From Candidatus Marinacidobacterales bacterium (GTDB lineage Bacteria > Acidobacteriota > Vicinamibacteria > Marinacidobacterales > DATDRI01), in contig OZ245365.1 of assembly GCA_965226495.1 (NCBI GenBank), forward strand, positions 2,944,001-3,008,000: DNA of 64,000 nt, read 5' to 3'. Both the position numbers and the translations under genes were made by a program. This document shows, in pieces, positions 1,063 to 41,563 of the stretch (positions are counted from its first letter, which is position 1; every line of letters starts with the position of its first letter). Below the pieces are notes generated by a model that searched no databases, was not told the DNA's origin, and saw only the letters and a list, made by a program, of their open reading frames with translations.

Positions 1063-4041
1063 ATGAGCCCGGTCCGAATCGCTCTTTGTCTAACCGTCGG
1101 ACTCGTCTCGATGGGCCACGCCCAGACCCGCGTCGAGTTCCATCTGCTCCCTGCTATCTCCACCGGCCCGCTCGATCCGGACTGGAGCCCGGACGGACAA
1201 ACGATTGCTTTCGCCATGCGCGGCGATATCTGGACGATCCCCGCCGTTGGCGGAGAAGCCGTGGCGCTCACCGAAGGACCTGCCTACCACTCGGAGCCGA
1301 GCTTCAGCCCCGATGGAACGAAGGTCGCCTTCACGATGGACTTCGACGGCAATCTGGAGATCGGCCTCGTCGAGATAGCCAGCGGAACCATGGAACGGCT
1401 CACGAACGACCCGGAGGTCGATATCGAGCCCGATTGGAGTCCGGACGGAACGAGCTTGTACTTCGCGAGCCGAAGAAACGGCAACCTCGACATCTTTCGG
1501 ATCGATCTTACAACGAAGCGGGTGACGCCCGTCATCACGGGACCGCGCAACGACTTTCAGCCCGCCGTGTCACCCGATGGACGGAAGCTGGCCTATGTCT
1601 CACCGGTGACCGGCCGGAGGGGCTCGGGCGGTATCTGGATGATGCCGCTGCCGTCGGGCGAGCCTCGGCTCGTGCACTACGAAGAGACGAGCTATCGGCC
1701 GAAGCCCCAATGGTCGCCTTATGGCGCCACGCTCACGTACTCCACGGATGCCGCGGGCTCCAACGATATCGCCGTCGTTCTATCCAAGGGTGGAAACCCT
1801 GTGCGTCTCACGGAAGACCCTCTCGATGAGATCGACCCGGCTGTGAGCCCGGACGGTTCGACCATCGCGTTCGTCTCCAATCACCGGGGACCGACGACGC
1901 TCTATACGCTCTCGTCAGCAGGCGGCGCGAGAAGTGCGTGGAGGCCCGTCCGCATCGAGTCACGGCGGCCGCGGTTTGAAACGGGGCGCGTTCGCGGCAC
2001 GGTAAGAGGTCCGGACGGAAGCGTCGTTCCCGCGCGCGTGATGCTCGTCGCGAGTGACGATCGCAGCTATACCGAAAACGGCGGCTTCCATCGGATGGTG
2101 CCGTCCACCCGGACCCATTTCCAGCACACGAGCGGATCCTTCGAGATCGAGGTGCCGGCCGGAACGACGAACATCGAAGCGATGCGCGGCTTCGAGTTCA
2201 TGCCTGCGAAGGCTATCGTCGAGGTGCCCGCGGGCGGTGTCGCGGAAGTCGAGCTCCAACTGACGCGCATCGTCGATCCACGTACCGGCGGCTGGTACTC
2301 GGGCGACATGCATACCCACGATCTTCATGAAGGCCGCTTCGGCCTGACTCAGGAAGGCTTCTTCCATCAGGCCGTGGCCGATGATCTGCACGTGACGAAC
2401 GCGCTCATTCACATGGACGGGACGAAGCTTATGGGCCGGTGGAGCGATCTGACCGGAGAGTCCCATAGCCTTTCGAATAGCGACTACATTCTTCGCTATT
2501 CGCAAGAGTTCCGCGGCTCTTTCGGCCATGTAGCGCTTATCGGTGTCGACGAGTTCATCATGCCGCTCATCGGCGGTGCTGCCAATACACCTTACGCTCC
2601 CGACGTGCTGAAGATCCGTCACATCGACGGTGTTCACGCCATGGGCGGGATCGCGGGCTTCGTTCACCCGTACAACCAGACCGTCGAGACCCCCGAGGAT
2701 GCGGCCGCCGCCGACATCCCCGTGCACGTGGCGCTCGGCAAAGGCGACTTCTACGACGTCGTCTCGATCGCGTCGCTCGATATGGAATCGGCTCGTGTGT
2801 ACAACAAGTTGCTCAACAGCGGGTTCCGACTCGCGGCGACAGGCGGCACTGACAACTTCTCCGACGTCTGGTACGATTCCTCGGGAGGCACCGCCCGAAC
2901 ATACGCGAAGATAGATGGCGGGCTCAGCTTCGAATCATGGATCGAAGCGGTGCGGGCGGGCCGTACGTTCGGAACCAACGGGCCGTTGCTCTTTCTCAGC
3001 GTCGACGGGAGAGAGCCGGGCGACGAACTCCGGCTCGCCAGTAGCGACCCGGCTTCGTTGAGCGTTCGTGTCGATGTTGCATCGATGTCGCCGCTCGACC
3101 AAGTCGAGATCCTCGTCAACGGCGAGGTTGCTCACACCTTTCGGCCGCAGGGTGCCGGCCCACGATGGGAGCTCGATGCGACCATCGTCGTACCGGGGAG
3201 CGGCTGGGTGGCGGCTCGCGCTATCGGCCCCCAGAGTCGCTACATCGGCGACCTGTTTGCTTTCGCACAGACGTCACCAATCTACGTCGTTCGGGACGGA
3301 GTAACCTATACCTCGGCCGCGGACGCACGCTTTCTGCTCAACTCGGTGGAAGCGCTCTGGCGCAACGTCGAAGCGCGAAACACCTGGCACACCCCAGCGC
3401 AGAAAGACGCTTACCGTGACGGCATCGAGACGGCACGTGCGGCTTATCAATCCGTTGTGCTGAGGCACCCCGAGGACGAAGTGTTCCGACAACGAGCGCC
3501 CGAAACGTTGCGCGTGCAGCTGCGGACGAGCGAGGGCGACATCCTCATCGAGCTCCATCGCGAGTGGTCTCCGAACGGCGTCGATCGCTTCTACAACCTC
3601 GTGCGCCACGGGTACTACGACGACACGAGATTCTTCCGCGTACGGGATGCGGACTTCGCCCAATTCGGCATTCACGGCACCCCGGCCGTGGCTCAGGCGT
3701 GGCGAGAACAGACCATTCCCGACGATCGCGTCGTCCAGAGCAACCGTCGCGGACGCCTGGCCTTCGCCATGGGCTACCAGCCAAACGGCCGCACCACCCA
3801 GATCTATATCAACCTAAAAGACAAGACCGAGCTCGACGACATGGGGTTCTCTCCCGTCGGCGAGGTGATTGAAGGGATGGACGTGGCCGATGCCATTTAC
3901 TCCGGCTACGGCGAATCGGCCGGCGGAGGCATCCGTGGCGGCAAGCAAGATCCGATGTTCGAAGGCGGGAACGCCTATCTCGGCGAGAACTTCCCCGAGC
4001 TCGACACCCTCATCGAAGCACGCATCATCGATCCAGACTGA
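1063..4041 (+). CDS. Secreted multidomain protein: PD40/TolB-like propeller + CehA/McbA-type PHP metallohydrolase + C-terminal cyclophilin-type PPIase
   Basis: GGAGG RBS before ATG 1063; signal peptide; repeated P.WSPDG; GDMHTH, SFGH, HP, GTDNF; C-terminal DRFYNLV...FFRV...AQFG...RTTQIYIN...GEVIEGMDV cyclophilin motifs. Confidence 0.8.
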   Translation: MSPVRIALCLTVGLVSMGHAQTRVEFHLLPAISTGPLDPDWSPDGQTIAFAMRGDIWTIPAVGGEAVALTEGPAYHSEPSFSPDGTKVAFTMDFDGNLEIGLVEIASGTMERLTNDPEVDIEPDWSPDGTSLYFASRRNGNLDIFRIDLTTKRVTPVITGPRNDFQPAVSPDGRKLAYVSPVTGRRGSGGIWMMPLPSGEPRLVHYEETSYRPKPQWSPYGATLTYSTDAAGSNDIAVVLSKGGNPVRLTEDPLDEIDPAVSPDGSTIAFVSNHRGPTTLYTLSSAGGARSAWRPVRIESRRPRFETGRVRGTVRGPDGSVVPARVMLVASDDRSYTENGGFHRMVPSTRTHFQHTSGSFEIEVPAGTTNIEAMRGFEFMPAKAIVEVPAGGVAEVELQLTRIVDPRTGGWYSGDMHTHDLHEGRFGLTQEGFFHQAVADDLHVTNALIHMDGTKLMGRWSDLTGESHSLSNSDYILRYSQEFRGSFGHVALIGVDEFIMPLIGGAANTPYAPDVLKIRHIDGVHAMGGIAGFVHPYNQTVETPEDAAAADIPVHVALGKGDFYDVVSIASLDMESARVYNKLLNSGFRLAATGGTDNFSDVWYDSSGGTARTYAKIDGGLSFESWIEAVRAGRTFGTNGPLLFLSVDGREPGDELRLASSDPASLSVRVDVASMSPLDQVEILVNGEVAHTFRPQGAGPRWELDATIVVPGSGWVAARAIGPQSRYIGDLFAFAQTSPIYVVRDGVTYTSAADARFLLNSVEALWRNVEARNTWHTPAQKDAYRDGIETARAAYQSVVLRHPEDEVFRQRAPETLRVQLRTSEGDILIELHREWSPNGVDRFYNLVRHGYYDDTRFFRVRDADFAQFGIHGTPAVAQAWREQTIPDDRVVQSNRRGRLAFAMGYQPNGRTTQIYINLKDKTELDDMGFSPVGEVIEGMDVADAIYSGYGESAGGGIRGGKQDPMFEGGNAYLGENFPELDTLIEARIIDPD

Positions 4042-33144: not shown

Positions 33145-33305
33145 TTCAGACAGTATAGCTCGTCGTAGCACCTTGACATCACAGGCGATATGGCGTTTCA
33201 TTAGGTCTGGGTAGAAATTTCTCAAACACCGAGGATGGAATGAAGGGCTGCCGCGGGTCTGGCGCAGCCGGTCGACGAGGGCCAACCAGGCGAGAGGGGG
33301 TATCG

Positions 33306-33863
33306 ATGGCAAGTTACGTCTCCGTGAAGTCTTTCGTGGATCGGCTGGAGACCATGGCTGCCGCCGGTTTCGATACCAACGAAGTGCATGCGTACCTCAC
33401 CGACACGCTGATCGAACCTTCCTCGCTCGACACCTACGTGAGATTCAATTCGGCTCGGTACTGCCGCAACCTAGTCCACAAGAGTGAGAAGTTCGAGATT
33501 CTCGTCGTTTGCTGGAAAGTCAGCCAGGGGGCGCCCGTCCACGGACATGAGGGAGAGCGCTGTTGGGCGCGCGTGGAACGAGGTAGGCTCCGTTTCGTAA
33601 ACTATCGAGAGGTATCGGAGAAACCCTTGGTGGTGGAGCAGTTGGGAGAGCCAGTGGACGGGGGCCGGGGGCACCTGGACGGTCCCGCCGATATCCACAC
33701 CGTGGAGAACCCGGACGACTCAGGGGAGGACGCCGCCAGCCTCCACGTGTACTCCTTCCCTTTCGACGAATGCGACATCTACGATCTGACGCTAGGTGAG
33801 AAAAAGCGTGTTCGCATGGAGTACGACACAATGTTCGGCAAACCCACGAGCGCGGCTTCCTGA
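33306..33863 (+). CDS. Cysteine dioxygenase family (cupin)
   Basis: YCRNLV, VVCW, PVHGH, IHTVEN, SLHVYS. Confidence 0.85.
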   Translation: MASYVSVKSFVDRLETMAAAGFDTNEVHAYLTDTLIEPSSLDTYVRFNSARYCRNLVHKSEKFEILVVCWKVSQGAPVHGHEGERCWARVERGRLRFVNYREVSEKPLVVEQLGEPVDGGRGHLDGPADIHTVENPDDSGEDAASLHVYSFPFDECDIYDLTLGEKKRVRMEYDTMFGKPTSAAS

Positions 33864-33876
33864 GAGGTTCGAGTAA

Positions 33877-36051
33877 TTGGTCGAGCTCAATCACCACGAA
33901 CACTACGTAAGGGCCAAGATCCTCTACTACGGTCCTGCTGCTGGCGGGAAGACCACCAGTCTTCAAGTGCTCCACCGCCGCGCGCATCGAAACCAGAAGA
34001 TGGAGCTGATCTCGGTCAACACCGCGCAGGATCGCACCATTCTCTTTGACCTCCTCCCGCTGCGGACAATCGCCTTTCGCAGCTACGAGCTTCGGTTCCA
34101 AGTGATCGCCGTTCCGGGACAGCGTCTCTACGCCGCAACGCGCAAAATGCTTCTCAAGGGAGCCGACACCATCGTCTTTGTCGCAAACTCTGCCGCCGAC
34201 CGCTTTCAGGAAAATCTACACAGCTTGAAGGAAATGACCGAGAACCTCCTGAGCCATGGCATCGATCCATCTGGCATGCCGGTTGTCTTTCAATACAACA
34301 AAAGGGATCTTCCGGATACGACGGAGATCAAAACCTTGGATCGTGCCCTCAACGCGCGTAGCTCGGAGAGTTTCCCTTCCATTGCTATCGAAGAAGAGGG
34401 GGTATTGGAAACGTTCGCCGCCGCACTTCGTCTCACGATGACCGAGCTCTCGACTCGATACAAGATTGGCGAGGACGTCCGCGGCCCGCGCGCCGCGCGC
34501 GAATGGGCCGAACGCGCCATGAAAGAGACCTTCGACGTGGCGAAGAAAGCCCCGCCGACTCCAAAAGAAGAGGCCCCGCCGAGCCCCGAACCTCCGCCCG
34601 CGACCGTGCTCCGCGTGCGAACGCCATCCGCGCCCCGGACGAAACTCGGGTCGCCCCCGGCGGCACCAGCATCCGCAGACTCACCGGCGCCGGCGCCCTC
34701 CGCGTCAGCCGAAGTGCAGGATCCCTTGGGAGCCCAGGCACTCGTCGAGAGCTATGCCGAGGCGACGGCCGGACTCACCGACCACTTGAGTCGACTGACA
34801 GAGGAGAAGGACGAGGCGAACCGAAGGCTCGAGGAGCTGTACGCCGTGTCTGACATAGGGCGCAGCCTGCTTCATGCCTCGCGCGACCGAGCCAAAGCGC
34901 TGTTGGAAGGCGTGGTGAAGAAGATGTCGAACATCTTCCGCACTTCGCAGGCTTCGCTCTCCCTGTTGCGACCGGACGGTGAGTTGGAGGTCATCGTTCA
35001 CCAAGGCATCGAAGATGATCCAGTTGTCTACGGAACGTCGTCCGAAGGTAACTCACTCGGACCGTCGCTGCTGGAAGCGGGAAAGCTTCGCCTCGAGCTG
35101 CGCGGAGCGGCCGGGCCTCTGGGGGAAGCGATCGAGCGAGTCGGCAAGCAATGCGCTGCGGTCTTGGTGCTTCCGCTCCAAACGCCTGCGCGCCCCATCG
35201 GGTTGCTGGTTTTCTATCTCCCCGAGGAAGCGTCCATCCCTAGCGAGTTCGAAATGGAGCACCTCGAACGCCTGGCACTCGCATTGACCTTGACGCTCGA
35301 AGTCGCCTCCGAGGCGGTTTCCACGGAGCGCCTGGAAGGAATGACCAAAGCGGCGCTCGCCGGACAGCTTGCGCAGCGCGTTTTCCGTTCCGCAGACGGC
35401 CCCATCGATCGAATCGTTTCCTCTCTTTATCGACTTCGTTCGCGCGCCGGCTCGCCGGCATGGCTCACCGACGGCCTGAGCCAGATGGAGGACACGATCT
35501 TCCAGCTCCAATTCGTGAACTCTCTTTATCGACTTCGTTTGAGTCGGGGCCGATGGAGACACGATCTTCCAGCATTCGGAGACGACGAGTTTCCTCCCGC
35601 CGACCGCGTTTCCTTGGAGGAGCTTCTCGGCGAAATCGAGGCGGACTTTCGGGTGCCGTTGGCAGAGGCTGGAGTCACCCTTCAAATCGAGAACAAGGCC
35701 AGTGGTGCTTTCCTGAGGGCAGAACCCGTCCTACTCCGTGCCCTCATCGGGGGCTTGATAGAAAACGCTCGCTGGAGCCTCGCCGGGATTACATCGGGAT
35801 GCGTGATACGCGTGATCGTGCAACCGACCGAACAAGGCATCCGGCTCGCCATTTTCCATAACGCCGGCGCGTTGGTTTCTCGAAGAGCTCCCGCCCAAGC
35901 CCTGTCGTGGCCGTTCGAACGGCGTCTCTCCGAGGTAAACCTGAAGCTCGTCGAGACCCTGGTCTCCTACTTTCAAGGCGAGTTGACGACGGAGAACCGG
36001 GAGAAGGTCGGTTCGATGACGACGCTGATCTTACAAACCGATCCGAGCTAG
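33877..36051 (+). CDS. MglA-like small GTPase fused to Pro-rich linker, GAF domain and degenerate histidine-kinase-like domain
   Basis: KILYYGPAAGGKTT, DRTILFDLLPL, VPGQ, QYNKRDL; GAF LVLPL...IGLLV; LIENA N-box. Confidence 0.75.
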   Translation: MVELNHHEHYVRAKILYYGPAAGGKTTSLQVLHRRAHRNQKMELISVNTAQDRTILFDLLPLRTIAFRSYELRFQVIAVPGQRLYAATRKMLLKGADTIVFVANSAADRFQENLHSLKEMTENLLSHGIDPSGMPVVFQYNKRDLPDTTEIKTLDRALNARSSESFPSIAIEEEGVLETFAAALRLTMTELSTRYKIGEDVRGPRAAREWAERAMKETFDVAKKAPPTPKEEAPPSPEPPPATVLRVRTPSAPRTKLGSPPAAPASADSPAPAPSASAEVQDPLGAQALVESYAEATAGLTDHLSRLTEEKDEANRRLEELYAVSDIGRSLLHASRDRAKALLEGVVKKMSNIFRTSQASLSLLRPDGELEVIVHQGIEDDPVVYGTSSEGNSLGPSLLEAGKLRLELRGAAGPLGEAIERVGKQCAAVLVLPLQTPARPIGLLVFYLPEEASIPSEFEMEHLERLALALTLTLEVASEAVSTERLEGMTKAALAGQLAQRVFRSADGPIDRIVSSLYRLRSRAGSPAWLTDGLSQMEDTIFQLQFVNSLYRLRLSRGRWRHDLPAFGDDEFPPADRVSLEELLGEIEADFRVPLAEAGVTLQIENKASGAFLRAEPVLLRALIGGLIENARWSLAGITSGCVIRVIVQPTEQGIRLAIFHNAGALVSRRAPAQALSWPFERRLSEVNLKLVETLVSYFQGELTTENREKVGSMTTLILQTDPS

Positions 36052-36052
36052 G

Positions 36053-37222
36053 CTAGCCGTCCGTGGAGGAAGTCGCGCGCGCCACCGCGTTTCGGCCCCG
36101 ATTCCACCGCAATGCCTGTACCAAGTGATTCCATCCCCACGCTATGACCTGGTGCAACCGCCGGAGATAGAACCAGCGAGTGGCGCCGCCCGGAAACACT
36201 TCACGCATGACGTTGTGACGAGGAAAAGTGAACTCGTAGAGGTAGCCTAGCTTTCCAAGAAAAGACGGGATCGAAAAAGCCACCAAGAGCTCTCCGGTTG
36301 CCTCTGCGGCCCGCCTAGCTACGACCGCATCCACGAACTTGCATTCCATTCGGTTCAAGCGCGGTAGAGAAACCCACACTCCCGGAGGAATCTTCACCGC
36401 GAGAAGTCGCTCCATAGCAGAGACTGCATAGGCGACGGGGCGCTGCGTCCGGGTTTTTTCGGCTTGGAGCAAGAGCTCTTCCCAGTCGAGTCGCCGCGAT
36501 ACCAGCGCTAGATCAATCAACCAGATGAGTCGGGAGAACGAGTGCTTCTGCGCGTGTACCGCGAGATGCAAAAATTGATGAGCGGGTGACAGAGTCAGTA
36601 GGCTGTTGTCGCCTGGATCCAAGGCCACCGCCTTCGCCCAGACTGCCTCGGCATCGAACTGGAACGCTAACGCTCGCCTGCGGATCCGAGACGCGTTGAG
36701 GAGGTCGGTATGGAGGTCGAACATCACCGGCCCCTTCGTGAAAAGCGTCCCCGATGAGCCCGGGGAACGGAAGCCCCGCTCAAAGAGCATATCCCGCACT
36801 CGGGGAAGGTCTGTCTCGTCCACCAGGAGATCCAGGTCGCTCAAAGGGCGTAACCCCAATTGGCCTCCGTAGGCGGTCGTGGTCAGCGCGCCACCTTTGA
36901 GAAGAACGACCCGAAGCCCCTCCCTCTGGAGAGCGGTACGAAGGGTAAGCAATTCTGCGAAAAGGCTTCCGTTGGAGACAAAAATGCCGTGGAGTGCCTT
37001 CGAGAAGGGCTCCAAGGGAAGCTTCAAATGGTGGGTTCTTGAGAGCTGCTCGAGCTGAAGCGCCAGCACGCCGCCCATACCTTCTTGCCCCGCCAACTCG
37101 AGCAGACCCGCCCAGTCCAAGGAGGGACCGATACATTCGAGGGCCTCGTCCTTCTCGGCATTGCCGAGGAAGAGTCGCCCCGCGGCGAGGAGCACGTCTC
37201 GTTCTGGGCTTCTAGCAACCAC
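36053..37222 (-). CDS. Uncharacterised nucleotidyltransferase (NTP_transf_5-like)
   Basis: LLKGGAL, RPLSDLDLLV, DLH, HLAVH, RLIWLIDL; GTG 37222 overlaps upstream stop. Confidence 0.8.
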   Translation of the reverse strand: MVARSPERDVLLAAGRLFLGNAEKDEALECIGPSLDWAGLLELAGQEGMGGVLALQLEQLSRTHHLKLPLEPFSKALHGIFVSNGSLFAELLTLRTALQREGLRVVLLKGGALTTTAYGGQLGLRPLSDLDLLVDETDLPRVRDMLFERGFRSPGSSGTLFTKGPVMFDLHTDLLNASRIRRRALAFQFDAEAVWAKAVALDPGDNSLLTLSPAHQFLHLAVHAQKHSFSRLIWLIDLALVSRRLDWEELLLQAEKTRTQRPVAYAVSAMERLLAVKIPPGVWVSLPRLNRMECKFVDAVVARRAAEATGELLVAFSIPSFLGKLGYLYEFTFPRHNVMREVFPGGATRWFYLRRLHQVIAWGWNHLVQALRWNRGRNAVARATSSTDG

Positions 37223-37751
37223 AATTATTCTGGGCCGAGGCCGTCCCCACGCACACCCCATTGCAGCACAGCTTGGAGCCGCATTGGCTTCCGGGATTAC
37301 CGTTGTGGCAAGGGGCACAGTCACCCGCGGCGTTGCAGTCTCCCGTAGGCACGCAGCTCATCCCGTGCGCCGGAGTCGGTGCAACGATGGAGCTCACGAC
37401 CGGCAGCATCACGGAGGCGGCGAGGCCGACTTTCTTCAACCGACGAATGAAGTCGCGCCGGGAGTACCCCTCGATGGGCGCTTTCCCTTCCAGCAAACCG
37501 ACGCGCGCGAGGCGGCCCAAGGCATAGTTCACGACCTCTCGGTCGGCAGGTTCGTCGAGCTTATCGGCGAGGATGCGCGCCAACTGAGAGATAGTCGCCT
37601 TCCCATTACTGTGGCGCCATACGATCGCGGCGGCACGGTTGAGGCGATGAGCTCGATGATTCCTCAAGTCATAGACCAGAACTTCGTCGAGGAGGTTTTG
37701 CACCGCCAAATCCTTTTTCCTCCGACGAGGTTTATCGTGTTCCCTGCTCAT
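37212..37751 (-). CDS. PqqD/RRE domain fused to internal twin-arginine motif and Cys-rich peptide (putative RiPP precursor)
   Basis: EVLVYD...AHRLNRAAAIVWRHSNG..TISQLA...L...GLL RRE; SRRDFIRR plus hydrophobic LPVVSSIVAPTPAHG; 49-aa tail with 10 Cys. Confidence 0.8.
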   Translation of the reverse strand: MSREHDKPRRRKKDLAVQNLLDEVLVYDLRNHRAHRLNRAAAIVWRHSNGKATISQLARILADKLDEPADREVVNYALGRLARVGLLEGKAPIEGYSRRDFIRRLKKVGLAASVMLPVVSSIVAPTPAHGMSCVPTGDCNAAGDCAPCHNGNPGSQCGSKLCCNGVCVGTASAQNNCGC

Positions 37752-37776
37752 GCTCGCTCCTTGCTGGACTAGTGCC

Positions 37777-38613
37777 CTACGCAGCGTTATCGAGCTCGGC
37801 CAGCATTTTCTCTAGCACTTCATCCACTTCACCCCGAGCTCCGATCAAGACCGGCGCGCGACCCACCGCGCGTTTCAACGTCTCCAGCGCGCGTTGGGGT
37901 TCTAAGCGGGCCGAGGCCGTGTTGGCCAACAACGCGAGAGCCGCTTGACCGGGAGAAAGCGTATGCGGACTCCAATTTGCCCCCGGCTTGTACTCGCTCA
38001 GAATGACTAACCCGACCGGTAGCGGTGGCCCCCCTGGGGTCACGCCCAGTTCCTCGACTAGCTCAGAGATGGAACGCCTCTCTCCTTCGAGTGTCTCGGG
38101 AGGGTGGGGAAAAGCATGGACACGGCCGCGTGAATCGAAGACCGCGTACTCGTCGGAGTAATACGTTCCCCCCGCCCTTACCAATCCGGCGACCAAAGTG
38201 CTCTTGCCGCTAAAGGTCTTGCCCGGCAAAACGATAGCCCGGCCGCGCCATCCGACCACCCCCGCGTGGATGAACACTCGCGTCTCGGAGGTTTCCGCGA
38301 CGAAGAGCCGCATGTCCGAGACGAGAACCTGAAGTAAATCGTCGAGGTCCATCGTTCTCGAGATTCGTTGCGTATTGGCATAGAGAAGGTTGTACCAGCG
38401 GATCCGACTGCTGGAGCCGGTTGGTTGGTTCGGTCCAACCCGGAGCGAATACAATCGATCCACGACGCGGGACTTCGCCGGTTTCCAACCGGGGGGGAAC
38501 AACGACTCGAGACGATCAAGTACTTCCACTTGGTTGACGCGAACTCCTACGCGAGTGCCGTAGGCTCGAAACGCAATCCCCGCTTCCCAACCGAGCCGAT
38601 CGAGCTCTTTCAT
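37777..38613 (-). CDS. HPr-kinase-like P-loop kinase
   Basis: FIHAGVV, PGKTFSGKSTL Walker A, YYSDE. Confidence 0.75.
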   Translation of the reverse strand: MKELDRLGWEAGIAFRAYGTRVGVRVNQVEVLDRLESLFPPGWKPAKSRVVDRLYSLRVGPNQPTGSSSRIRWYNLLYANTQRISRTMDLDDLLQVLVSDMRLFVAETSETRVFIHAGVVGWRGRAIVLPGKTFSGKSTLVAGLVRAGGTYYSDEYAVFDSRGRVHAFPHPPETLEGERRSISELVEELGVTPGGPPLPVGLVILSEYKPGANWSPHTLSPGQAALALLANTASARLEPQRALETLKRAVGRAPVLIGARGEVDEVLEKMLAELDNAA

Positions 38614-38903
38614 CGACGTCGAGCCTCCGTCGAGCCGTGGCAGGATCGAACGTGACAAGCGATTCTCCCTCTCTCTGCGAGTCAGACCTCGGTGTTTGGA
38701 AGACAGACGCCTCCGCCGAGATCCGACTAAAAAAGCCATCGCGATAACTACGGGTGTTTATCTGTTATTGTATCAATAGGTTACCAAAAGTACTCGATTG
38801 AGGCAAGCCACTGCCCAACCCACCTGATCTCGTTTGCGCTCGCGACCGCCGGTATATAGCCTGGGCCGCACAACAGCGGGCGTTTTAGGCGCGTTAGGGG
38901 CAG

Positions 38904-40357: not shown

Positions 40358-41563
40358 CTATCGGCGGCGGTTGCGGGCTTCGAATTTTTGGAACTTCTGA
40401 ACTGAAGCGATTTCGCTCAAGCCCTCGCGGATCAGCGATTCGACGTCTGGGCTCGGCTTCAAATCGAGCGCATCCATGAGATGCTGGTAGGCGGCGGTCG
40501 GCTCCCGGAAGGCGTGAAGCTGCAGGAGACCAGCATAGGCGTGCGCCTCGGCGGCACCTTGGCCCGCCGGATAGTCTCGGAGATGGCGCTGATAGACGGT
40601 GAGCGCCGCCCTGGCGTGCCCGTTCTGCGCCAGCCAATTGCCCAATGCGATCGAGTCATCTGGCTCGAGGAGTCCACGCGTTACGTTGGACGATAGCTCG
40701 AAGTAGAGTTTCGCCGCCTCATCGAACTGCTGTCCCTCAATCGCGGCGGCGACTTTTTTCCGAATGGGCGGTGCCTCCGTCTTCGGTACGCGTCGAGCGC
40801 GAAACTCTTCCGGACGCGAGCTGACCTTGCGAAGACCGGCGACCCAAGCAACCAAAACCCCCGCGAGAAAGCCGCCGATGTGCGCGCCGTGCGCCACGCC
40901 CCCGCCACCTCCTCGCGAGATCAGAAAAGGGAAAATATTGTCGAGGATGAGGTAGACCCCCAGCACCAGGCGCGAGCGCAACAGCATCGTCTGCATGATG
41001 AAAGGAAAAAAGAAAATGAAGACCCGCACTTTGTTGTGAGGAAACCATAGGAAGTAGAATCCGAGCACTCCGGAAATCGCCCCCGATGCACCCACCAAGG
41101 GAAGCGGCGACCGACCGGCGAACATCCCGTAGAACACGGTGGCAGCGACGCCGGTCGCCAAGTACCAAAATAGGTACTTGAAGGATCCCAGCCGGTGCTC
41201 CACGTTGTCTCCGTAGATCCACAGAAACAACATGTTTCCGAAGAGATGCATGAAGCCGCCGTGGAGGAACATCGCAGTGAAAAGCGTGATCAGAGAAGGG
41301 TCTACGCTTCGAAAGCCCCACGAGAAGACAACCAAGTCGTAGGCCGATATCTGTTGAATGACTTGGGTCGGCGATACGCCGGGCGGGAGGCTTTCACTCA
41401 CCGCGTTCACGTACTCCTGGACCCTCGGGTCCTGCGGGTCGGCGGCATTGAAACTGAGGGGTAGCGAGATGAGAACGTAGACAACAACGTTAACGGCGAT
41501 GAGAGCGTAGTTTACGTACGGAACGCCTTGGGGATTGGGCTCGTCTCCTAGCGGCAAAAACAT
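40358..41563 (-). CDS. Rhomboid intramembrane serine protease with C-terminal TPR-like region
   Basis: HGGFMHLFGNM, GASG, AHIGGF. Confidence 0.9.
   Translation of the reverse strand: MFLPLGDEPNPQGVPYVNYALIAVNVVVYVLISLPLSFNAADPQDPRVQEYVNAVSESLPPGVSPTQVIQQISAYDLVVFSWGFRSVDPSLITLFTAMFLHGGFMHLFGNMLFLWIYGDNVEHRLGSFKYLFWYLATGVAATVFYGMFAGRSPLPLVGASGAISGVLGFYFLWFPHNKVRVFIFFFPFIMQTMLLRSRLVLGVYLILDNIFPFLISRGGGGGVAHGAHIGGFLAGVLVAWVAGLRKVSSRPEEFRARRVPKTEAPPIRKKVAAAIEGQQFDEAAKLYFELSSNVTRGLLEPDDSIALGNWLAQNGHARAALTVYQRHLRDYPAGQGAAEAHAYAGLLQLHAFREPTAAYQHLMDALDLKPSPDVESLIREGLSEIASVQKFQKFEARNRRR

Follow-up and report, generated by a model that had tools for sequence, protein, structure and literature searches.

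Three tightly coupled genes on the minus strand of a Candidatus Marinacidobacterales genome (assembly GCA_965226495.1, contig OZ245365.1) are the subject of this work; the whole stretch of DNA analysed, 64,000 nucleotides long, is called the window below. The genes encode a P-loop kinase related to HPr kinase (HprK), a fusion protein and a nucleotidyltransferase of the NTP_transf_5 family (Table 1). They had been noticed earlier in a reading of the sequence letters (the original prediction), which described them as a tightly coupled operon of the kind that makes RiPPs (peptides synthesised on the ribosome and modified after translation). The open reading frames (ORFs) confirm the coupling. Only 25 nt lie between the kinase stop and the ATG of the fusion gene, with a GGAG 8 nt 5' of that ATG, and the fusion and transferase genes overlap by 11 nt. 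The longest minus-strand ORFs extend over 37777-38739 (kinase), 37212-37751 (fusion) and 36053-37324 (transferase). The kinase start given in Table 1 was set by an alignment of 25 homologues that begins with MKELDRLGW, and the GTG is the likely start of the transferase, the same overlap with the fusion gene being found in the relative L002.

Table 1. Features of the three-gene locus (positions in the window; RRE, RiPP recognition element; Tat, twin-arginine translocation; AF2, AlphaFold2)
Feature	Position	Strand	Remarks
HprK-related P-loop kinase gene	37777..38613	-	278 aa from ATG 38613
Gene of the putative fusion precursor (RRE, Tat-type leader, Cys-rich core)	37212..37751	-	179 aa ORF
NTP_transf_5 nucleotidyltransferase gene	36053..37222	-	389 aa from likely start GTG 37222
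PqqD/RRE domain, residues 14-90	37482..37712	-	PF05402, AF2, Foldseek
Internal twin-arginine-type signal/leader, residues 96-130: YSRRDFIRRLKKV, then GLAASVMLPVVSSIVA, then PTPAHG	37362..37466	-	
Putative core peptide, residues 131-179, 49 aa, 10 Cys	37215..37361	-	framework C-C-C-C-C-CC-C-C-C

The 179-aa product of the middle gene was said to join a PqqD/RRE domain, the motif SRRDFIRR, a hydrophobic stretch and, as its core, 49 residues of which 10 are Cys and 6 Ser/Thr, and all of these are present in the sequence. Residues 23-75 match PF05402 (PqqD) with E=2.7e-5 and 24.8 bits against a cut-off of 23.4. In the AF2 model of the monomer, built from 47 sequences, the mean predicted local distance difference test score (pLDDT) is 81, with the RRE at about 90 or above, the core at 76-92 and the leader at 45-67. 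Foldseek matches the RRE best to the lasso-peptide B1 protein TbiB1 (5v1u/5v1v, TMt 0.73-0.74) and to 6jx3 (TMt 0.78), with a probability of 1.00 and E values of 1e-3 to 1e-2; these top-matching structures are of lasso B1 proteins bound to leader peptides. The motif SRRDFIRR occupies residues 97-104 and is followed by the 16-residue hydrophobic stretch GLAASVMLPVVSSIVA (109-124) and by PTPAHG (125-130). Hence the protein carries the features of a Tat substrate, namely [ST]-R-R-x-hydrophobic-hydrophobic (SRRDFI, 97-102), a moderately hydrophobic region and an AxA-type site, in a genome that encodes TatC (229 bits). The core ends in CGC, and all ten of its Cys are invariant among 10 close cores. 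When it was modelled alone with AF2 from 10 sequences, the best of five models had a mean pLDDT of 85.6 and the five ranged from 51.6 to 85.6. A fold search with the 10-Cys core gave no credible match (Foldseek E of 3.7 or more; best VIA-align Z 2.1, with a root-mean-square deviation of 1.8 over 36 residues).

Both flanking enzymes had been named in the original prediction, together with a proposal for a hidden Markov model (HMM) scan. That scan matched PF05402, as given above, and PF14907 in the transferase (E=5.4e-43); the kinase has no Pfam match but does match TIGR04352 (HprK_rel_A), weakly and below its cut-off (E=8.7e-14, 51.3 bits against 200). The HPrK-type motifs of the kinase, H116-A-G, G131/G136-K137 (GKTFSGKST) and S153-D-E155, are invariant in 25 homologues, and the transferase keeps G51, K109-G110, R125, D129, D131, H223 and D237 without change across 29 homologues. 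Judged from these residues, both the kinase and the PF14907 transferase are intact. A sequence search of the PDB returned chance-level matches only for the kinase (E of at least 0.58) and none for the transferase. No lasso cyclase, B2 protease, radical S-adenosylmethionine (SAM) enzyme, YcaO or ABC (ATP-binding cassette) transporter is encoded among the 20 ORFs scanned, from 24.3 to 50.0 kb, so the absence of cyclase, peptidase, radical SAM enzyme and YcaO that had been claimed holds over that range. Neither MNIO (DUF692) nor a DUF2063 partner was found among the scanned neighbours of the locus.

The fusion ORF is not a chance reading frame, since a word-indexed search found 32 homologues, mostly of 172-181 aa, with the same layout, and since related loci number 107 (27 in genomes and 80 in metagenomes). 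The genome loci belong to Acidobacteriota (several classes), Methylomirabilota/Rokubacteria and Gemmatimonadota. A family profile of 47 members, searched against 1.84 billion representatives, matched 11,755 representative clusters at E<=1e-3, 6,317 at 1e-10 and 2,237 at 1e-30. Among the 150 matches listed the lengths are mostly 157-200 aa, and the two arginines are present in 149 of 149 further top representatives among the matches listed (144 checked by script and 5 by eye). Of 201 genomes sampled from the phylum to which the window belongs, 28 had a match at E<=1e-10, about 12 of these also covering the leader, with at most three matches per genome. No NCBIfam model spans the whole fusion protein; the best partial matches among the 47 members are to ScmD (34), PqqD (30) and TIGR04353 (18, at E<=0.01).

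Comparison of the members shows where the family is conserved. Mean pairwise identity is 0.49 in the RRE, 0.47 in the n-region with the twin arginines, 0.51 in the hydrophobic region and 0.58 in the c-region; in the core it is 0.23, or 0.14 if Cys is left out. The original prediction had staked itself beforehand on a core more variable than its leader, and this is what was found. A conserved leader followed by a hypervariable core is also the general mark of a RiPP precursor. R98, R99 and P117 are invariant in all 47 aligned members. In closer comparisons, residues 1-130 are 85-88% identical to those of L002, L029 and L030 and the cores just 44-50%; for these pairs the rate of nonsynonymous substitution (dN) is 0.33-0.47 for the core as against 0.01-0.07 for the leader. 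With L034 the identity is 61% over the N-terminal part and 63% over the core. Such mosaic cores fit either core exchange or old divergence.

A cleavage site could be placed in 280 of 283 distinct members with our own scoring script, which requires the two arginines. The consensus of these 280 leaders is [ST]RR[ED][LMVF][IVML][RK][RK]LG.AAA.ALP.V[TS]SIVAPT.A.A, with A occupying -1 in 93% and -3 in 78% and Pro occupying -6 in 75%; AxA is found in 202 of them, and 28-34 aa separate the twin arginines from the site. The hydrophobic region is 11-16 residues long across the family, which is short for a membrane anchor, and together with the conserved Pro and the AxA it reads as a cleavable signal. 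Beyond the site, the number of Cys is even in 273 of 280 members, which is why, of the disulfide or metal stabilisation that had been suggested for the core, we favour the disulfide. The first Cys stands at +3 in 124 members, with Ser or Thr just before it in 185 of 276, and core position +2 is Ser or Thr in about 70% of members. The commonest Cys framework is C-C-CC-C-C (75 of 280); the 10-Cys framework of the core studied here occurs in 34.

Two other readings of the middle gene were rejected. A nested gene is contradicted by the lack of any ATG close to the RR motif and by the preserved length of the fusion, 157-200 aa throughout the family. In a lipoprotein, one Cys would be lipidated and the remaining Cys would be odd in number; furthermore, the residue ahead of the first Cys is Thr in 88 of 276 members, and position -4 is usually charged or polar, unlike the pattern of a lipobox.

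A few members depart from the common form. In two of them (L019:5989-7083 and L015:495-941) what follows the AxA site is not a Cys-rich core but a long Gly-x-y repeat (GPT/GAT) like that of collagen, and both adjoin large multi-glycosyltransferase genes. At L020 two fusion genes (2620-3111 and 3325-3855) lie in tandem between kinase and transferase, with 6-Cys cores that are different but related. The 300-aa member P0155 has a 6-Cys core and then about 140 residues ending in VWVHNKG, which by eye resemble a Hint/intein-type C-terminal module. Split peptides of leader plus core (30-97 aa) were also looked for, and no candidate was found by a search that reaches close relatives only.

The association of the fusion gene with the two enzymes was examined at those 39 of the 107 loci where each flank extends for 1500 nt or more. 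A kinase is present at 24 of these, the transferase at 31, both at 22 and neither at 6. Local HMMs applied to the 27 genome loci gave a kinase at 19, a transferase at 19, both at 16 and neither at 5. Of 52 loci with a kinase, 46 have it directly upstream of the fusion gene and on its strand; of 77 with a transferase, 71 have it directly downstream, again on that strand. The co-occurrence that had been predicted for homologues of the middle gene is thus seen, in the order kinase, fusion, transferase on one strand. Among five genomes whose fusion locus is without a kinase, four have a kinase homologue elsewhere. No lasso cyclase/B2 cluster was found among the neighbours of the 27 genome loci. 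Other genes recur beside the fusion gene: a giant protein with a terminal Peptidase_C25 domain is encoded next to it in 13 of 107 loci, including 4 of the 6 evaluable loci without either enzyme, and genes for polysaccharide chain length plus tyrosine kinase, or for glycosyltransferases, flank five loci (L011, L012, L015, L016, L019).

Some further observations concern the Peptidase_C25 proteins. The source genome has 11 matches to this domain, most of them at the C-terminal end of giant frames (951 to 6,188 aa); those labelled L110-L117 lie at about 600-668 kb, at 222-238 kb and at 5.50 Mb of the contig, six within about 70 kb, and none is near the locus. The fusion loci L014, L023 and L026, from one metagenome-assembled genome, directly follow a gene with a C25 domain and have no adjacent kinase or transferase. 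Two fusion genes of that genome are split by frame changes and its kinase elsewhere is also split in two, which may be assembly error.

How the parts might work together is indicated by a predicted complex of the transferase with the fusion protein, which scored 0.84 while the best of three controls scored 0.00. Of 157 solved complexes, 116 attained the mark used for this score, as did 2 of 215 mismatched pairs; these counts are approximate here since we used our own alignments. At least 50% of contacts are shared between the runs, and the pLDDT of the partners is at least 74. It is unlikely that the model passed by remembering a known complex, because no solved structure matches PF14907 by sequence. 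The confident part of the predicted interface brings residues 55-92 and 120-124 of the transferase against the RRE strands at 14-36 and against I122, A124 and P125 of the leader. Transferase residues 120-124 immediately precede R125, D129 and D131 (the catalytic DxD), and the junction of leader and core is predicted to lie near the active site, with S120 and S121 adjacent and S132 seven residues past P125. The model therefore predicts that the RRE recruits the transferase to the leader-core junction in cis. It had been suggested that the RRE masks or recognises its own leader; recognition gains partial support from the fact that the RRE sheet and I122/A124/P125 share one predicted transferase interface.

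What known systems does this resemble? The nearest is HPr-rel-A, defined by TIGR04352, by TIGR04353 (PqqD family peptide chaperone) and by PF14907, the same three protein families that are found in one operon here. At one canonical locus (L123, in genome G093 of the phylum sample) a small ORF with twin arginines and a hydrophobic leader is followed in turn by PqqD_rel_X (66.6 bits), HprK_rel_A (280 bits) and PF14907. Aligned with hhalign to the family profile, that small ORF places its RR..GL..P in register, with an E of 0.24 that is not significant. In contrast to HPr-rel-A, the PqqD domain here forms one protein with the leader and core and precedes them, the genes run kinase, fusion, transferase, and the core is rich in Cys; moreover, both the kinase (51.3 against 200 bits) and the PqqD protein (17.1 against 35 bits) fall below the HPr-rel-A cut-offs. 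Since the content of the trio is the same but its signature models are far below their cut-offs, the cassette is, on profile scores, a divergent fused relative of the HPr-rel-A trio, outside its equivalog families. Neither this relationship nor the great size of the fused family figured in the original prediction. A literature search found no published function for the canonical system.

Function has been described for enzymes of lasso peptide pathways. According to the part of PMC8498205 available to us, homologues of HPr kinase phosphorylate the C-terminal Ser of lasso precursors, the nucleotidyltransferase of pseudomycoidin adds one or two hexoses to the phosphate, and the RRE-dependent B2 protein sometimes carries the lasso nucleotidyltransferase as a fused part. 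Like the pathways of phosphorylated and phosphoglycosylated lasso peptides (paeninodin, pseudomycoidin), the cassette brings together a B1-type RRE fold, a homologue of HPr kinase and a nucleotidyltransferase. It differs in having no cyclase or B2 protease, in a core that does not end in Ser, in a leader of the export-signal type and in an RRE in cis; its product is predicted to be disulfide-rich, whereas a lasso product is threaded.

Another parallel is with bufferins, which the accessible portion of PMC11626156 describes as MNIO-modified RiPP metallophores of a very large family, with a general-secretion (Sec) signal peptide as N-terminal extension and Cys-containing cores that fold as small proteins. 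A general export-type signal ahead of a Cys-containing core and a very large family are common to both. The bufferins of that portion use Sec, an RRE on a separate DUF2063 partner and MNIO thiooxazole chemistry, in contrast to the twin-arginine motif and cis RRE here. The commonest framework of the family, C-C-CC-C-C, is like that of animal and plant knottins, and relatives with six Cys give repeated weak matches to UPF0506, Conotoxin, Omega-toxin and Toxin_12, all below gathering scores; the core studied here, in contrast, has 10 Cys in another framework and no fold match. A twin-arginine signal away from the N-terminus is not without precedent. In actinobacterial Rieske proteins, which are dual Sec-Tat membrane proteins, such a signal directs the export of the C-terminal part (PMC5449189, in the portion available). 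There, as far as that portion goes, it is preceded by Sec-inserted helices and ends as an uncleaved anchor, whereas here a soluble RRE precedes it and an AxA-type site follows. Literature searches combining PqqD with HPr kinase, RRE with twin-arginine, PF14907, and bacterial knottin with RiPP found no description of the fused family, which appears to be undescribed.

Our interpretation is that the cassette makes an RRE-fused, Tat-exported, RiPP-like precursor of a secreted disulfide-rich mini-protein, a reading in which our confidence is modest, only slightly above an even bet. Its parts do not stand equally firm. The architecture, the family, the pattern of leader and core and the linkage to the enzymes are well supported. 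Tat-type export and cleavage by signal peptidase are strongly suggested by the conserved leader. That a phosphate and then a sugar or nucleotide is placed on Ser or Thr we infer from homology to PadeK, PsmK and PsmN, both for the chemistry and for the site. If correct, the kinase would phosphorylate a Ser or Thr hydroxyl in the cytoplasm, and the transferase would extend the phosphate with a nucleotide-activated group, as with the hexose of pseudomycoidin. The likeliest acceptor would be the Ser or Thr just before the first Cys (S132 here), or else S120/S121. The Tat translocase would then export the core post-translationally, signal peptidase I would cut after AHG, the Cys pairs would oxidise in the periplasm, and the RRE and signal would stay behind. 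Hypervariability, several copies per genome and knottin-type frameworks in many relatives suggest that the mature peptide may be antagonistic or inhibitor-like.

Several observations weigh against this interpretation. The 0.84 of the predicted complex is the model's own confidence and not a measurement of binding. The AF2 monomer leaves the leader undocked on the RRE, with pLDDT below 50 at 110-117 and 123-130, and so the masking part of the earlier suggestion finds no support. The core is predicted to fold confidently without any modification, yet just two of its five models exceed a pLDDT of 80. Neither Pfam TAT_signal (PF10518) nor TIGR01409 matches the fusion protein, and its relatives match Tat-signal models only below threshold (TAT_signal in 5 of 26, and 1 of 47 in a further scan). 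The twin-arginine motif is internal, at residue 97, an unusual position for a Tat signal. The kinase is missing at 15 of the 39 evaluable loci and the transferase at 8, and the 6 loci without both still keep the RRE. Only 14 of 280 cores end in Ser, whereas the lasso kinases act on a C-terminal Ser. Finally, the ratio of dN to the synonymous rate (dS) in the core is below 1 wherever it could be computed, with dS inflated or saturated, and there is no sign of positive selection.

The points about folding and enzyme loss bear on what is modified. It may be that the core is an unmodified secreted disulfide-rich mini-protein, the target of the RRE, kinase and transferase being the leader (at S120/S121 or S97, for example); or the three may only gate or time export and leave no modification on the product. 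A core that is predicted to fold on its own would suit this explanation, as would the concentration of family-wide conserved residues in the leader and not in the core, the predicted interface that holds leader residues 122-125 beside S120/S121, and the 6 of 39 evaluable loci that lack both enzymes. Nevertheless, a signal peptide would be blocked by charge placed on its hydrophobic region, a modification that makes sense only if it is reversible; about 70% of members retain the Ser/Thr at core position +2, seven residues away from P125, a docked residue; and the known homologous enzymes decorate the final peptide, so far as the part of PMC8498205 at hand describes them. We consider modification of the leader alone unlikely, though it is the strongest of the competitors.

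The other two explanations concern the route to the outside. The architecture could be as we describe it while export proceeds by Sec or an unrelated route, the twin arginines serving, for example, recognition by an enzyme or by the RRE. The subthreshold scores of the Tat-signal models point that way, small Cys-rich peptides need no folding in the cytoplasm, and bufferins are RiPPs exported by Sec (PMC11626156, in its accessible portion). However, all 47 aligned members keep the RR pair unchanged, the family consensus has [ST] ahead of it and two hydrophobic residues behind it, the genome encodes TatC, and tailoring in the cytoplasm needs export that is post-translational. The n-regions of Sec signals, moreover, tolerate Lys. 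We regard this possibility as quite improbable, and a little more improbable still is a bitopic membrane protein acting as a sensor or scaffold that controls kinase and transferase, with its PqqD domain in the cytoplasm, a signal-anchor that is not cleaved and a small Cys-rich domain in the periplasm. The export motif is indeed internal, the N-terminal domain would remain cytoplasmic, and the polysaccharide-chain-length/tyrosine-kinase or glycosyltransferase neighbours at the five loci named above would fit such a role. But a hydrophobic region of just 11-16 residues is against it; the segment with Pro at -6, A at -3 and A at -1 is the best conserved of all and needless for an anchor; and outer domains that are hypervariable and mosaic, tandem copies as at L020 and up to three matches per genome are atypical of sensors.

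Around the cassette lie genes that are on the other strand or unrelated: a cysteine dioxygenase, a GTPase-GAF-kinase-like protein, a short-chain dehydrogenase/reductase (SDR) and a rhomboid protein. The GTPase-GAF-kinase-like protein is a 724-aa ORF at 33877-36051 on the plus strand, with weak matches to small GTPases (Arf/small_GTP), to GAF and, at its C-terminus, to histidine-kinase-like ATPases, all below curated cut-offs; it stops 2 nt short of the transferase stop on the opposite strand. The cysteine dioxygenase homologue (type I, PF05995, E=1.6e-15) is at 33240-33863 on the plus strand, two genes from the locus of a Cys-rich peptide, and is not conserved at the related loci examined. A rhomboid protease with a long C-terminal extension is encoded at 40358-41563 on the minus strand, 1.6 kb upstream of the kinase gene and on the same strand, the SDR gene on the other strand separating the two. 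A scan for promoters and terminators was uninformative, giving no promoter-like site and 3 terminator-like sites where 3.4 were expected. A search for sequencing runs listed none made from RNA.

If the cassette does make an RRE-fused, Tat-exported precursor, a broader suggestion can be made, which we put forward tentatively and would expect to fail somewhat more often than to hold. The family may represent a new RiPP class, very abundant in bacteria of the soil (Acidobacteriota, Methylomirabilota, Gemmatimonadota), with an RRE in cis and a twin-arginine signal that serves also as the leader. The kinase and transferase would together attach a sugar or nucleotide through phosphate to a Ser/Thr where the core begins, and Tat, in place of a dedicated transporter, would release modified mini-proteins resembling cystine knots. 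A family of thousands of clusters would then have been missed by RiPP mining because it has no class-defining cyclase, radical SAM enzyme or YcaO. It would mean that a substrate can include its own RRE and that a general export signal can act as a RiPP leader. The phospho-glycosylation chemistry of lasso peptides would extend to folded disulfide-rich mini-proteins, whose hypervariable, stable cores would be a natural library of bacterial knottin-like scaffolds, and the HPr-rel-A system would gain a testable hypothesis for its long-missing type of substrate.

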